A DNA stretch of 64,000 nucleotides from Candidatus Doudnabacteria bacterium RIFCSPHIGHO2_01_FULL_46_24. GTDB taxonomy: Bacteria > Patescibacteriota > Doudnabacteria > UBA920 > O2-02-FULL-48-8. The stretch lies in the NCBI GenBank assembly GCA_001777575.1, contig MFEL01000018.1, positions 8,264 to 72,263 on the forward strand, written 5' to 3'. The position numbers were made by a program, and so were the translations under genes. This document shows, one piece after another, positions 4,054-60,484 of the stretch. The notes beneath the pieces are model-generated. The model made no database searches and was not told the DNA's origin. It saw nothing but the letters and a program-made list of their open reading frames with translations. How positions within the stretch are numbered: position 1 is the stretch's first letter; every line of letters begins with the position of its first letter.

Positions 4054-4236
4054 TTACGAATCTTCCCTCCTTTCGTGCGAGACCCGTTCTGAGGCTCGCA
4101 TAAAAACCATGGCGGCCACGGCACTTAGCCCGAGCAGTGCCGTAAAAAACGCGGCGATGCCGCCGGCCAAGCCATAGGCCACTCCAGCCAACATTACTAC
4201 GGCCAGAAGCAGCCAAACGCTTAGGCGCTTAGGCAT
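4054..4236 (-). CDS. small hydrophobic membrane protein (60 aa)
   Basis: AGGAGG 9 nt upstream of the ATG at 4236; MPKRLSVWLLLAVVMLAGVAYGLAGG hydrophobic core; the track's TTG start at 4272 is less likely. Confidence 0.45.
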   Translation of the reverse strand: MPKRLSVWLLLAVVMLAGVAYGLAGGIAAFFTALLGLSAVAAMVFMRASERVSHERREDS

Positions 4237-4453
4237 ATGGAACTTTCCTCCTTCCTCATGAGATGCGTTCAACCCTACTTACGAGCGCCAGGATCAAACG
4301 GAAAACCGTTTGGGCCTGAACTTATGGCTACTTGCACGCAATAGGAGGGATGCTGCATGCTTTCACCGCATCGCAAGTAGGATAGAAAACACCTGCTGTG
4401 CTATATTTTATAGGAAACAACATAGGATAGCAAAAATGCCAGAAAATGTCAAC

Positions 4454-4528
4454 CCCGTTAGAAACATGCTGTTTCAGGCGCTTTAAATTAAAAATTAAAC
4501 TGACATGTCGCACGAAGTTTCTAACGGG
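4454..4528. promoter_or_regulatory. inverted-repeat element copy A (CCCGTTAGAAAC ... GTTTCTAACGGG, 51-nt AT-rich spacer) spanning the dprA start
   Basis: Perfect 12-bp arms read directly; dprA ATG at 4505 lies in the spacer; related copies at 32627-32728 and 60101-60209. Confidence 0.6.
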
Positions 4529-5608
4529 ATCAATACCGAGAATAAAGTTTACGGCAATGCCCTCAATTCAATAGAAGAACTCGGGCCAGTCAGTTTGCTC
4601 AAACTGCTTAAGTTTTTCGGCAACTTCCAGAATGCCTGGCAAGCGGGCGTAACTGATCTGGCCAAAGCAGGCCTCGACCAAAAAAAGATTGATGCCATTC
4701 TAGCAAAACATCCAAGCCTGAAGCCGGAGCAATTGTGGCAGGAAACCCAAAGACTGGGCCTTGAGGCACTGCTTCTGGGAGAAAAAGATTATCCTAAACT
4801 TCTGGCCGAAATCCCCTCGCCGCCGCCGATCCTTTATGTCCGAGGAAACAAAAAGATTTTGAATGACAATCTGCTGGCGGTGGTGGGCAGCCGCAAAATG
4901 ACCGGCTACGGCCGGCGCACAGTAGAAGATCTCATTCCCCAGCTCCTAAACGCCGGCCTGGATGTGGTTTCGGGCCTGGCCTTCGGCGTAGATGCCTGCT
5001 CTTTGCAGACAACACTTTCTGCCGGCAGTGCACCCATTGCGGTACTTGCTTCCCCGCTTGACAACTCAAGCATTTCACCGAGAATCAATTACAATTTGGC
5101 CCAAAAAATCGTTCAGCAGGGTTGTATGATATCCGAATACGCTTTGGGATCTCAAGTCTACAAAACCAATTTTCCCCAGCGCAACCGGATCATTGCCGGC
5201 CTGAGCTTGGGAACGCTCGTAATTGAAGCCGACGAAAAAAGTGGCAGTCTGATTACCGCTAATTACGCGCTTGATTTCAACCGCGAGGTGTTTGCCGTTC
5301 CCGGCCCCATCTTTTCCGATGTCAGCCGCGGCACCAACGCCCTGATCAAAAAAGGAGCGGTTTTGGTGTCTTCAGCTGCGGACATTATCCAAGCGTTGAA
5401 CCTCGACGTGACCTTGCAGATGGAGCTGGATGAAAATTACCACGATGAAACCGGAATTCTGGATTTGCTTTCCGAGCCCAAACACATTGATGAGCTGATC
5501 CGGCAGCTAAAGCTGGACGCGCCCACGGTCAGCACGAACTTAACCATGCTGGAACTCAAAGGCCGGATCAAACATGTAGGCGGGGGCACTTATGCCAAGA
5601 TCCGTTAA
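4505..5608 (+). CDS. dprA: DNA processing protein DprA (Smf)
   Basis: Rossmann-like core LLAVVGSRKMTGYGRR...GLAFGVDACS, 367 aa. Confidence 0.88.
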   Translation: MSHEVSNGINTENKVYGNALNSIEELGPVSLLKLLKFFGNFQNAWQAGVTDLAKAGLDQKKIDAILAKHPSLKPEQLWQETQRLGLEALLLGEKDYPKLLAEIPSPPPILYVRGNKKILNDNLLAVVGSRKMTGYGRRTVEDLIPQLLNAGLDVVSGLAFGVDACSLQTTLSAGSAPIAVLASPLDNSSISPRINYNLAQKIVQQGCMISEYALGSQVYKTNFPQRNRIIAGLSLGTLVIEADEKSGSLITANYALDFNREVFAVPGPIFSDVSRGTNALIKKGAVLVSSAADIIQALNLDVTLQMELDENYHDETGILDLLSEPKHIDELIRQLKLDAPTVSTNLTMLELKGRIKHVGGGTYAKIR

Positions 5609-9167: not shown

Positions 9168-9437
9168 TTATTTCTTCGCAACTCCTTTGGCGATATACTG
9201 CTTCATCAAAGATTGATAAGGCACGTCTAATTCATTAGCTTTTATTTTCACACGGGCCACGATATGGGATGGAATGCGCAGAGAAATAGATTGGGAAGTG
9301 GGCTTAAGATTTGGAAACAAGGGACCAATCATGGCTTTGGATAAATCAAAATATTCGGTAGAATCATGGGTATCCCAAAACTCCCGTTCTTCGTCTTCGT
9401 TCTTAAATTTAGGCAGCTTTTTTATATGTCTCTTCAT
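9168..9437 (-). CDS. brnA: BrnA-family antitoxin (ribbon-helix-helix), copy 1
   Basis: KKLPKFKNEDEEREFWDTHDSTEY ... VPYQSLMKQYIAKG, the typical BrnA pattern. Confidence 0.7.
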   Translation of the reverse strand: MKRHIKKLPKFKNEDEEREFWDTHDSTEYFDLSKAMIGPLFPNLKPTSQSISLRIPSHIVARVKIKANELDVPYQSLMKQYIAKGVAKK

Positions 9438-9717
9438 AAGTTTTCCTCTCTTTTTTATTCGCCGGGCGCGCAGATATTATTCTGATTCGCCGGGTTCTAA
9501 TTGTAAAAGCTACAAATAATAGTTTGCCTGCTTGAGTCTGGCCATACATGCCAAATCGCTTTTCGGTTTGGCTATGCCTCTGGTCTGGGAAAACTATATA
9601 AAAATTGAAAAATGATTCCTCGGTTTCCAGCTGAGTAATTCCATGTTTCTCTAAACTTTTAGCCTGATTGCCTTCATCCCACTCAAACCCTTCTGATTGA
9701 CTTAAATCTAGCCACAT
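9409..9717 (-). CDS. brnT: BrnT-family toxin (DUF497), copy 1
   Basis: FEWDEGNQAKSLEKHGIT ... IRIISARPANKKERKTYEE; start placed at M of MWLDLSQ because the track ORF to 9909 runs through an implausible hydrophobic leader. Confidence 0.65.
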   Translation of the reverse strand: MWLDLSQSEGFEWDEGNQAKSLEKHGITQLETEESFFNFYIVFPDQRHSQTEKRFGMYGQTQAGKLLFVAFTIRTRRIRIISARPANKKERKTYEETYKKAA

Positions 9718-9862
9718 AGACACAGTGTATATGGGAAACTCTACACTGTCAAGAGTATAATTAATACGCCACCCACCTATCATGATGGTTGTCAAATTTA
9801 CGTCCACGCTTGCGTATACGCAAATTACATAATTAATTACGTAATTAACACAACTGCCACGG

Positions 9863-9891
9863 TTGCCATGTTTGAAACCCAAGGCTATAAT
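9863..9891 (+). promoter_or_regulatory. sigma70-type promoter TTGCCA-17-TATAAT upstream of the 9919 ORF and glycerate kinase
   Basis: Hexamers and 17-nt spacer read directly. Confidence 0.45.
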
Positions 9892-9918
9892 GACCTTAAT
9901 TAATCTCAAAAAAATTAT

Positions 9919-32576: not shown

Positions 32577-32626
32577 CAGGCCTTTGACATATTCCAATAC
32601 TTTTGGCAAAATATCAAGGCTTATTC

Positions 32627-32728
32627 ATCCCGTTAGAAATTGATATAGCCAGTATTAATCGTAACGCAATATCTGACGAGGATCGAGAAATGGCAAGATA
32701 GCATAATTAACCAGTTTCTAAACGGGAT
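32627..32728. promoter_or_regulatory. inverted-repeat element copy B (ATCCCGTTAGAAAT ... GTTTCTAAACGGGAT) with right arm ending on the secG ATG
   Basis: The downstream arm reads tttctaaacgggATGaatc, so the secG start codon is within the arm. Confidence 0.6.
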
Positions 32729-32951
32729 GAATCTTAAAGATATTTTCACTTTCAGCCTGATTGGTGTCTCGGTGCTGCTGGTCATCGTCATTCTCCTTCA
32801 GCAGAAAGAGGGCGGGTTATCCACCGTCTTTGGCGGGGAGGGCACGGTTTACCGCCAAAAGCGAGGCTTGGCCAAAGGTTTGCATTATTTCACCGTTGTC
32901 TTGGCGGTGCTGTTCATCGCCTTAAGCATTATGGTACTGTTCATGCAATAA
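32727..32951 (+). CDS. secG: preprotein translocase subunit SecG
   Basis: Two TM helices with ILLQQKEGGLSTVFGG between them, 74 aa. Confidence 0.6.
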   Translation: MNLKDIFTFSLIGVSVLLVIVILLQQKEGGLSTVFGGEGTVYRQKRGLAKGLHYFTVVLAVLFIALSIMVLFMQ

Positions 32952-34921: not shown

Positions 34922-35008
34922 GGGCGTGTGGCGGAACTGGCATACGCGCACGCTTCAGGAGCGTGTGGGAGCAATCCCGTGAGAGTTCAAATCTCTCCAC
35001 GCCCACCA
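34922..35008 (+). tRNA. tRNA-Leu (anticodon CAG), type II with long variable arm
   Basis: Hand fold: acceptor GGGCGTG/CACGCCC, 3-bp D stem, anticodon loop TTCAGGA, variable hairpin GGGA-gcaa-TCCC, T-loop TTCAAAT, encoded CCA. Confidence 0.85.
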
Positions 35009-35116
35009 ACTGCTCATAACACGTCCCGCCAACGACGGGATGGGAGCAATCCCGTGAGAGTTCAAATCCTCTCGTGCCCACCAAAAAAACATAAAGCTGA
35101 AGCCTTATGTTTTTTT

Positions 35117-59592: not shown

Positions 59593-60102
59593 TTAATCCA
59601 CCCTTTCCGGCCCCTTGTCATAATAGGCCTCGATAAATTTAATCATAGCCAGTTCGTCAAACTGCGCAAAGGTCTGTAGACGCGTCCAGGCGCAAAAGGC
59701 AATCGGCGCTTCGTTGGTCTCTCTTGGCTCAATAATCACCTTGCGATACCGTTTGGTAAAATCTTGAAGCTTGTCAATCGTAGTTTGATCGACTGTCCCC
59801 GGCTTATAAGAAATCCAAATCCCGCCGTGCTCCAAGTTATGGATCAGCTGCTCGTCAGGTAGTGTCGATGAATACACGCCCCAAGCTGCCGGCTGCGGCC
59901 AGTGCCAACCCGAGGTCGGCGGGTTGGAATTATAGGCCGGATGATCGGTGGAGCCTTCAGTCAAATGCTCATTGCCCTGGTTTTCAAATGTCTGCCCAGG
60001 TAAATTCTCAGGCGCCTGCGCCTGCTTGGAAGCTTGGAACAACCAGAATCCGATGCCCAGAACTATAACAATGACGATAACGATAATAATAATATTTTTC
60101 AT
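59593..60102 (-). CDS. DUF3105-family membrane-anchored protein
   Basis: N-terminal TM and HNLEHG motif. Confidence 0.55.
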   Translation of the reverse strand: MKNIIIIVIVIVIVLGIGFWLFQASKQAQAPENLPGQTFENQGNEHLTEGSTDHPAYNSNPPTSGWHWPQPAAWGVYSSTLPDEQLIHNLEHGGIWISYKPGTVDQTTIDKLQDFTKRYRKVIIEPRETNEAPIAFCAWTRLQTFAQFDELAMIKFIEAYYDKGPERVD

Positions 60103-60209
60103 CCCGTTAGAAATAGTGATAGTTAATTAATAAGCTATTTTTATTATAATCATCTCGTTTTAGTATAATTTTGGCCATAAACTCAACTACGTAAAATTTC
60201 TAACGGGAT
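60101..60209. promoter_or_regulatory. inverted-repeat element copy C (ATCCCGTTAGAAAT ... ATTTCTAACGGGAT) whose left arm covers the DUF3105 start codon
   Basis: Minus-strand reading atttctaacgggATGaaaaat; 14-bp perfect arms, 81-nt AT-rich spacer. Confidence 0.6.
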
Positions 60210-60227
60210 TCATAGCTTGGGTATTAT

Positions 60228-60259
60228 AAACTATCAACTATCAACTATCAACTATTGAC
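60228..60259. repeat. tandem (CAACTAT)x4 heptamer array immediately upstream of, and overlapping, the -35 of a promoter
   Basis: aaactatcaactatcaactatcaactattgac. Confidence 0.65.
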
Positions 60260-60283
60260 TCGAAGAATCCGAAAGGCTATAAT
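60255..60283 (+). promoter_or_regulatory. consensus promoter TTGACT-17-TATAAT ending 7 nt before the ATG (leaderless-type transcript)
   Basis: Read directly. Confidence 0.55.
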
Positions 60284-60289
60284 TTTTTT

Positions 60290-60484
60290 ATGAGCGAACC
60301 GATTACGAAACAAGAACTAGTCAAAACTTTGGGCGAGTTTACGGAAGAAACCCTGCTGCCGGCTCTTTCTGCCATGATGGATGAAAAATTCAAAAATTTC
60401 AGTCTCAAAAGAGATCTTAAACAAGTCATTTCCGAAACCGACGCCAAGCAAATTCTCTCGCTGGAACCGTTCCCAAAATCATAA
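60290..60484 (+). CDS. small hypothetical protein
   Basis: 64 aa downstream of a consensus promoter; terminator follows. Confidence 0.35.
   Translation: MSEPITKQELVKTLGEFTEETLLPALSAMMDEKFKNFSLKRDLKQVISETDAKQILSLEPFPKS

Follow-up and report, generated by a model that had tools for sequence, protein, structure and literature searches.

An inverted repeat at the dprA start of a Doudnabacteria genome is probably a copy of a MITE-like hairpin element with ends shared among bacterial phyla

The inverted repeat at the dprA start

The window analysed here is a 64-kb stretch of a Candidatus Doudnabacteria genome, and coordinates are window positions. The DprA that it encodes shows 100% identity to a protein of a RIFCSPHIGHO2_01_FULL_46 MAG. 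At dprA, CCCGTTAGAAAC at 4454-4465 is repeated in perfect inverted form, as GTTTCTAACGGG, at 4517-4528, and the two 12-nt arms lie on either side of a 51-nt, A+T-rich spacer that holds the annotated dprA ATG (4505-4507). A sequence-only reading of this DNA had described the repeat and its spacer around the ATG at 4505, and had placed the downstream arm over dprA codons 5-8; the sequence bears out both statements. The limits of this copy, called copy A, follow from a family rule, Y-CCCG...CGGG-R with a 4-bp duplication immediately outside, and the features of the locus are as follows.

4424-4427, plus strand: ancestral dprA Shine-Dalgarno (SD) sequence AGGA, 8 nt upstream of the ancestral ATG
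4424-4452, minus strand: divergent promoter TTGACA-17-TATCCT serving a 60-aa ORF at 4057-4236; its -35 box adjoins the left end of copy A
4436-4486, plus strand: ancestral dprA start (ATG 4436-4438), now a 16-codon ORF running into copy A, stop TAA 4484-4486
4449-4452: left copy of the TCAA target-site duplication, which is the TTGA of the -35 box TTGACA on the minus strand
4453-4529: copy A, 77 nt, consisting of terminal C, left arm, 51-nt interior, right arm and terminal A
4454-4465, plus strand: left arm of copy A, CCCGTTAGAAAC
4505-5608, plus strand: annotated dprA, 367 aa; copy A supplies the start codon and the first 8 codons
4517-4528, plus strand: right arm of copy A, GTTTCTAACGGG, coding for V-S-N-G of the annotated DprA
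4530-4533: right copy of the TCAA target-site duplication

Removing 4453-4533 in silico, that is, copy A and one TCAA, restores MPENVNTENKVYGNAL, with the junction ATG CCA GAA AAT GTC AA + T ACC GAG AAT AAA GTT TAC GGC. The N-termini of the closest DprA homologues (MPEINTKIYGNAL, MPETKNKIYGNAL and MELETKIYGNAL) resemble that of the restored protein, and copy A was therefore placed after codon 5 of the ancestral dprA, at G/TCAA/T. The 81-nt insertion keeps the frame yet carries the TAA at 4484-4486, and the DprA frame is open only from the ATG at 4505 within copy A, with MPENV replaced by MSHEVSNGI; the annotated N-terminal peptide is MSHEVSNGINTENK, as against MPENV... in the ancestral protein. 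No SD sequence precedes the ATG at 4505. This ATG is a secondary start within the insertion, and the ancestral SD sequence and ATG lie upstream of copy A. On the other strand, the left duplication rebuilds the -35 hexamer TTGACA of a strong promoter-like divergent site.

The empty site predicted for copy A reads ...AAAATGTCAA/TACCGAG... at its junction. The neighbouring PGA_cap gene is carried by 22 contigs, and the 10 places returned have identical gene calls; judged by these calls, those that reach the dprA start show the 367-aa dprA.

Further copies in the window and across phyla

Two further copies with the same arms, also announced by the earlier reading, were found at 32.6 kb (copy B) and 60.1 kb (copy C).

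32584-32612, plus strand: TTGACA-17-CAAAAT, a native promoter-like site that precedes copy B and secG
32628-32727: copy B, with inverted flanks (ATTCAT / ATGAAT); the secG ATG takes its A from the terminal base of this copy
32727-32951, plus strand: secG, whose start codon begins on the last base of copy B
59593-60102, minus strand: DUF3105 gene, with the terminal base of copy C as the A of its ATG (60102)
60098-60101: left TTCA duplication of copy C, read on the minus strand as TGAA within the rebuilt ATGAAA (DUF3105 gene)
60102-60208: copy C, 107 nt, with arms at 60103-60114 and 60196-60207
60209-60212: right TTCA duplication of copy C; with 60213 it forms the ancestral minus-strand ATG, which now begins an 8-codon ORF
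60223-60251, minus strand: native promoter TTGATA-17-TATAAT of the DUF3105 gene; copy C now lies between promoter and gene

The arms of copy B are at 32629-32640 and 32714-32726, the right one with one extra A, and since its flanks are inverted this copy has no target duplication. The ancestral ATG of the DUF3105 gene (A at 60213) is only 9 nt downstream of TTGATA-17-TATAAT, and the gene was thus formerly nearly leaderless. The suggestion that the downstream arm lies at or near a start codon in every copy stands as to proximity, whereas overlap is confined to copy A: in copies B and C the arm ends one base before the T of the ATG (secG ATG 32727; DUF3105 gene ATG 60102-60100, minus strand). 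The interiors of the three window copies have no mutual similarity. An exact match to the predicted empty sites of copies A and C was sought in JGI metagenomes, and none was found.

Beyond these six arms, which make up the three inverted pairs, the 64 kb contain no good match. Taken alone, the 12-mer with at most 2 mismatches is not enriched (7 found, 4.8 expected in 64 kb). A collection with one genome per species (596 Gb) was scanned for CCCGTTAGAAA-N(53-83)-TTTCTAACGGG, an exact pattern of 11+11 nt, and more than 120 stretches were found among the matches listed, against about 2 that we estimate to be expected by chance. The paired arrangement of the arms is far beyond chance. Species genomes with these arms number more than 120 and come from many phyla: many lineages of Patescibacteria; Planctomycetota, including anammox bacteria and Phycisphaerae; and Desulfobacterota / Thermodesulfobacteriota, Omnitrophota, Nitrospirota and KSB1. 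The matches include two complete genomes and contigs of up to 1.2 Mb. No match to the arms was found in the plasmid collection, and only 9 hits were obtained in the viral collection IMG/VR.

Comparison of these copies gives the general form Y-CCCGTTAGA-NNN...NNN-TCTAACGGG-R. The terminal inverted repeats are 13 bp long, with a core, (Y)CCCGTTAGA, that is conserved in sequence and three further positions that are variable but complementary, and the same ends, at 9-13 bp, recur in many bacterial phyla. The logo of the 236 listed arms reads aTTTCTAACGGG-R-T-n-a-A-y, and conservation extends neither further out nor further in. Elements are non-coding and 27-280 nt in size, and their interiors vary between a 3-nt loop and over 250 nt; the smallest copies are simple hairpins closed by 3-5-nt loops (for example, locus L083, 2661-2687). 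Nested and tandem (head-to-tail) copies occur, and some genomes have several per 8 kb. Interiors are unrelated between most copies, and related interiors were found at separate sites of one genome (L028 and L082; L080 and L120).

RNA folding recovers the predicted long-range stem in the minimum-free-energy fold of all three window copies, with z-scores of -1.6, -3.2 and -3.6. Across the family the arms co-vary, so that the earlier reading withstands its own refutation test on this point: the covariation score is 0.258, shuffles give 0.119, and 0 of 500 of them attain the observed value. Compensatory changes are located at arm positions 10-12 and at the terminal Y-R pair, sliding the partner columns destroys the pairing, and complementarity drops to background past arm position 12. 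A degenerate third arm (nCGGGR) was seen in start-codon copies, mostly (13 of 16) 19-28 nt from the far end. Sixteen such third arms share the strand of the gene and 2 are on the opposite one, so that the interior is oriented with respect to the gene.

Target duplications and placement at gene signals

An exact 4-bp direct repeat stands immediately outside the terminal Y and R in 82 of the 129 listed elements, whereas in a control with flanks shifted by 10 nt such a repeat was found in 0 of 128. Compared by their central dinucleotides, the flanking hexamers are direct repeats in 81 elements and inverted in 3, and the duplicated target is mostly TNNA. About a fifth of the listed elements (28 of 129) have no duplication whatever. 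Six start codons are ATG in their upstream copy and GTG in the rebuilt downstream one, which shows that the terminal base belongs to the element.

The earlier reading had expected a bias of position toward start codons, and across genomes this expectation held. An ORF of at least 100 codons begins at offset 0 from the arm (CGGG/RTG) in 40 of 113 listed elements, whereas each other offset from 1 to 60 accounts for 0-4 cases. A null model in which insertion occurs at RTNNAY or TNNA sites and insertions within ORFs are forbidden predicts 2-3% at start codons, so that the observed excess is more than 10-fold and the target motif was rejected as the cause of the bias. The duplication TGAA/TTCA was found 19 times at start codons and once elsewhere, and therefore does not reflect an intrinsic sequence preference of insertion. 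The 40 genes belong to 36 unrelated families and include dnaA, rplA, rplM, rpsH, hpf, clpP and hrcA, several of them essential. In five of seven cases examined (dnaA, rplM, rpsH, hpf and clpP) the Pfam domain starts at residues 3-14, which indicates that the start codons of those five genes are genuine.

Start codons are one of three kinds of site. In a second class of 12 cases the arm adjoins a -35 box, G/TTGA/C(A); a TAnnnT hexamer follows 16-18 nt downstream in 8 of the 12, or in 7 of 10 if only those counted as TCAA/TTGA duplications away from start codons are taken, so that these sites look like real -35 boxes. In a third class, a few arms adjoin the 5' edge of an SD sequence. In each class the terminal purine together with the duplication rebuilds the signal on one side of the element.

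Start-codon copies, with essential genes among them, leave a rebuilt AUG that has no adjacent SD sequence, and several ways in which it could be served were considered and rejected. A promoter in the arm that gives a leaderless mRNA would need a -10 box where the sequence at -12 to -7 from the rebuilt A is ATTTCT, a poor one. An interior promoter facing the gene finds no counterpart in strand bias, with -10-like hexamers (at least 5/6 match) in 23 and 24 of 40 per strand. A start codon within the element is no general solution, as an in-frame ATG is present in only 7 of the 40 start-codon cases. Copy A at dprA does use such an in-element start, though the arrangement is not general. For translational coupling, a stop of the upstream ORF at -7 or +1 was seen in only 6 cases, and 4 show read-through; ORFs from the upstream start copy otherwise stop 15-90 nt upstream, with no consistent stop position. 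The pile-up at start codons, more than 10-fold, is not explained by target motif and purifying selection.

Elements also lie inside coding sequences. The ExoIII-like protein of locus L012 aligns with PDB 2voa as residues 1-95 and 123-284, and the 27 residues encoded by the element therefore have no counterpart in 2voa. Other in-frame, stop-free insertions interrupt genes for Memo-like, IorA-like and FKBP proteins, and a further one lies in an ORF resembling a nucleotidyltransferase, an assignment made by eye. In the ExoIII-, Memo- and IorA-like proteins the predicted element-encoded segment has the form NPVRN...ISNGV. All five within-gene insertions are thus open and in frame (four confirmed by Pfam, one by eye), which argues for translation through the element and against its removal at the RNA level.

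Nature of the element and meaning for its hosts

We conclude, with a probability of about 0.8, that the repeat at dprA is a copy of a non-autonomous, MITE-like hairpin transposable element. The family has structural attributes by which MITEs are recognized, namely terminal inverted repeats, a duplication of fixed length, small size, no coding capacity and copies at unrelated loci. At the protein level, homologues of the ExoIII-like protein and of the DprA N-terminus lack the insertion. We propose that an enzyme acting in trans would make a 4-bp staggered cut and insert the element. At dprA, copy A entered the ancestral gene after codon 5 and left the old SD sequence and ATG to translate a 16-codon dead-end ORF. 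Only those copies would persist whose duplication restores a signal or which leave the reading frame open. In a transcript begun upstream, the two arms would pair as a helix of 13-14 bp, its 3' foot touching the start codon.

Several observations stand against the MITE reading. No empty site was found for the window copies at the DNA level, about a fifth of the listed elements lack a duplication, and the flanks of copy B are inverted. Nor do the window copies share an interior, as copies from a MITE burst usually would. About 1 Mb of fetched loci yielded neither an autonomous copy nor a transposase with these ends, and a partner search that covered arm pairs more than 200 nt apart, lone arms and an all-against-all clustering of 1145 neighbouring ORFs gave no recurring neighbour protein family, the best being present at no more than 5 of 128 loci. 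Arms that are perfect and co-vary at inner positions around unrelated interiors point to selection on the hairpin itself. Perfect arms with unrelated interiors are not predicted by plain DDE transposition. The more than 10-fold excess at start codons counts against the MITE reading as well.

Among known elements, Correia elements of Neisseria have 26-bp ends and a TA duplication, lie near gene 5' ends, are co-transcribed as hairpins and can alter promoters and leaders. The present element resembles them in being short and non-coding, in its terminal inverted repeats, in its target duplication and in its position near gene 5' ends. Its 13-bp ends, with a core of 9-10 bp, are of another sequence (CCCGTTAGA...), and its duplication is a 4-bp TNNA, in contrast to the 26 bp and TA of Correia elements, among which it was therefore not placed; unlike the latter, which belong to one genus, it is distributed over many phyla with unrelated interiors, and about 35% of its copies sit exactly at a start codon. 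Rickettsia palindromic elements (RPE) are palindromic and mobile, and lie in frame within genes, where they are translated as an extra peptide. The insertions in the ExoIII-like, Memo-like, IorA-like, FKBP and (by eye) nucleotidyltransferase-like genes recall them, whereas the present element is unrelated in sequence, smaller, spread over many phyla and mostly at gene starts or promoters and not within genes.

The 13-bp end of piggyBac is CCCTAGAAAGATA, with a TTAA duplication. ISEcp1, of the IS1380 family, has the left inverted repeat CCTAGATTCTACGT and 5-bp direct repeats (PMC6061673). Like these, the ends described here start with CC(C), contain TAGA and are accompanied by a duplication of 4-5 bp, although the duplication is TNNA and not TTAA or 5 bp, the likeness extends over a few bases only, and no IS1380-type transposase was found. 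On these sequence grounds we regard the resemblance to IS1380 and piggyBac as a loose one, a lead and not a classification.

The element is apparently undescribed. Literature searches by sequence and keyword returned primers and unrelated items only, with no description of it, and the '77-bp inverted repeat' of P. gingivalis (PMC3969353) is a different repeat, with a 77-bp stem. Rfam searches, at the gathering score for the window and 18 loci and at an E-value of up to 10 for 4240-4600, gave only tRNAs and one chance snoRNA hit. The link to dprA also brought DNA uptake sequences into consideration. The Neisseria-type DNA uptake sequence (DUS) is ATGCCGTCTGAA, which ATCCCGTTAGAA matches at 9 of 12 positions; it was rejected because there are only 6 arms in 64 kb, always paired and accompanied by target duplications. 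A transcription-factor operator, a CRISPR repeat, parS and dif do not fit in spacing or sequence, the gap between arms ranging from 3 to more than 250 nt.

The sequence-only reading had taken the repeat for a dedicated mRNA stem that controls dprA initiation, and this claim is not supported: target duplications, unrelated interiors, occurrence in many phyla and copies within genes were found instead. The more general form of the idea is a translational operator acting in cis, in which a long-range mRNA stem evolved locally to regulate translation, and we consider it unlikely. Such an operator would agree with the stem in the minimum-free-energy fold of all three copies and the covariation of the inner arm positions, with the fixed position relative to the start codon (40 of 113, many of the genes essential) and with the orientation of the third arm (16 against 2), which would permit an alternative pairing. 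It does not account for duplications that copy the gene's own first bases, for elements within coding regions and at -35 boxes, or for an ancestral dprA start upstream of copy A, and the same arms in unrelated phyla and 36 unrelated gene families speak against a regulon conserved by vertical descent. Later co-option of an inserted element as a regulator is possible. On the predicted structure, the element may influence initiation while being primarily a selfish insertion, and not a dedicated regulator of dprA.

Movement as a single-stranded hairpin, in the manner of REP/REPIN sequences and by a single-copy, domesticated HUH (RAYT-type) transposase encoded elsewhere in each genome, seems distinctly improbable. 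Movement of IS200/IS605 and REPIN sequences is not known to leave a target duplication, and each REP is itself a palindrome with a 5' GTAG-type motif. Dispersed hairpin units whose stem is kept by selection or conversion and which hold no transposase are a likeness to REP/REPIN, and such a mechanism would fit the conserved hairpin with covariation at its inner positions and terminal pair, the plain hairpins of the minimal copies and the lack of a transposase-bearing copy in the fetched loci. Set against it are the exact 4-bp duplications (82 of 129 listed elements), single arms that are not palindromes, a logo that contains no GTAG-type tetranucleotide and the fact that no RAYT-like gene recurs nearby; for the duplication, motif and gene alike, the element was not assigned to REP/REPIN.

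We hold it very unlikely that the arms are recombination sites, either of an invertible promoter switch or of an attC-like folded site for a tyrosine recombinase. In integron attC sites the boxes are ordered 5'-RYYYAAC ... GTTRRRY-3', and the sites occur in cassette arrays with an integrase. The arms do flank A+T-rich segments with -10-like hexamers, and GTTAGAA / TTCTAAC is close to the integron core GTTRRRY / RYYYAAC; as in attC, a box of nearly this sequence forms the conserved base of the stem, the upper stem co-varies, and the loop varies widely, between a few and over 100 nt. With respect to the loop, the boxes nevertheless have the reverse polarity, 5'-GTTAGA...TCTAAC-3' as opposed to attC, the order 5'-GTTAGAA...TTCTAAC-3' reads the same on both strands, and the arms form isolated pairs with a 4-bp duplication, with neither cassette arrays nor an integrase nor a recurring recombinase nearby; membership in attC was rejected on these grounds. 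An inverton was likewise rejected, as direct 4-bp flanks are unexpected for inversion, no recombinase recurs nearby, the orientation of the interior is 16 against 2 and not mixed, and loops of 3-5 nt are too small for a promoter.

Removal or skipping of the element at the RNA level, either intron-like or by ribosome bypassing between the duplicated take-off and landing sequences, would render insertions at start codons and within genes harmless. It could draw on the identical 4-nt sequences that flank a stable helix and on the essential-gene starts with no SD sequence beside the rebuilt AUG, and is nonetheless scarcely credible, given that all five within-gene insertions are in frame and stop-free and that start-codon copies have no consistent element-length frame or upstream-ORF end.

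Within the reading of the repeat as a transposable element, the pile-up at gene signals admits a more tentative proposal, one that we think possible though on balance improbable. The first base of a start codon, a -35 hexamer or an SD edge would be the site to which insertion is directed, or at which it is strongly favoured by selection, and the helix would be co-opted as a portable leader that allows initiation at AUG or GUG with no adjacent SD sequence. Looping out of the helix could, for instance, place the rebuilt start codon beside the old ribosome-binding site or the 5' end, an arrangement for which the split ribosome-binding sites of phage T4 offer a parallel.

For annotation, the finding means that DprA of this Doudnabacteria genome starts within an insertion, and that in many uncultured lineages a start codon beside ...TCTAACGGG is the rebuilt form of the original one, at least six of these being GTG where the original was ATG. 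We found no description of a 13-bp end that recurs from Patescibacteria to Planctomycetota, Desulfobacterota and Omnitrophota, and its distribution implies that bacteria of groundwater and sediment have exchanged it extensively by horizontal spread, or else that a mobilising enzyme as yet undiscovered is widely shared. As one third of the copies sit on start codons, some of them of essential genes, initiation must be efficient beside a stable helix and away from the original ribosome-binding site. SD-independent or structure-assisted initiation in uncultured bacteria thereby becomes directly testable. If the portable-leader proposal is true, a selfish element would have found a new means of occupying the start codons of essential genes, dnaA, rplA, rplM, rpsH and clpP among them, without harm or even with benefit.

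Sequences beside copies A and C and a repeated tRNA 3' end

On the minus strand near copy A of the hairpin element, a divergent open reading frame (ORF) with a strong AAGGAGG is preceded by a long leader:

Window 4237-4423, minus strand: untranslated leader of approximately 180 nt, between the promoter-like site (4452 to 4424) and the 60-aa ORF
Window 4057-4236, minus strand: 60-aa ORF, with a strong AAGGAGG

The segment 4237-4423 has no Rfam match; it may represent a leader or a small RNA of a kind not yet described.

Near copy C, two divergent strong promoter-like sites are found together with a short tandem repeat that sits between and over both of them:

Window 60225-60290: tandem repeat, TATCAAC x4.4

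This repeat could be an operator or an iteron. On the plus strand, only 6 nt separate the end of the -10 box from ATG 60290, the start of a 64-aa ORF, which is therefore probably leaderless; the ORF itself has no Pfam match.

A further repeat in the window involves a tRNA gene:

Window 34922-35008: tRNA-Leu(CAG) gene

The 3' 44 nt of this gene (34966-35009) recur 75 nt downstream at 35041-35084 with 86% identity. The arrangement resembles the att-type footprint left where an integrative element has used a tRNA gene. Separately, the contig's public annotation places a BrnT/CopG-type toxin-antitoxin pair and a PIN_3 gene in the window, at 9168-9909 and 2225-2650.

Elements at the starts of genes in other genomes

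Among the element-carrying loci of other genomes, the gene for a ribosome hibernation factor carries an element on its start codon in three different lineages of Patescibacteria. The protein is Ribosomal_S30AE at one locus (L053) and a homologue, 25-41% identical, at the other two (L112 and L117), with elements of 101, 78 and 76 nt, respectively. Either insertion at this gene has recurred, or one old insertion has been kept. Another element (locus L091, 7263-7377) occupies the start codon of the gene for ribosomal protein S8, right after an upstream in-frame TAA (TAAC-ATG). This TAA looks like the stop codon of the preceding gene, and the original layout like stop-start coupling; 115 nt now part that arrangement from the rebuilt ATG of S8.

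At the gene for a prepilin-like protein (L115, element at 1020-1115), the conserved Gly that precedes FTLIEVL appears to come from the GGG of the arm, and the leader peptide would therefore be element-encoded. At locus L058 (659-757), a second, degenerate arm, CTAACGGG, stands immediately before the ATG of an ORF judged by eye to be GrpE-like.

Nested and tandem elements

In two MAGs, the hairpin element lies in the middle of a longer repeat, approximately 330 nt in size, which has ends of its own (TAACCCGAAAAATGC... and ...GCATTTTTCGGGTTA). The coordinates listed for this case, by locus, are:

L008: 2-93
L009: 2167-2258 and 4942-5033
L034: 1390-1481
L019: 1231-1306

At L009, two inverted copies of the larger repeat flank the gene for a 686-aa secreted protein. 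Elements are also joined directly: at locus L014 (7674-7895), a head-to-tail pair has one hexamer, ATTCAT, common to both members (TTCA-E1-TTCA-E2-TTCA), so an element's own flank is among the targets that the family prefers.
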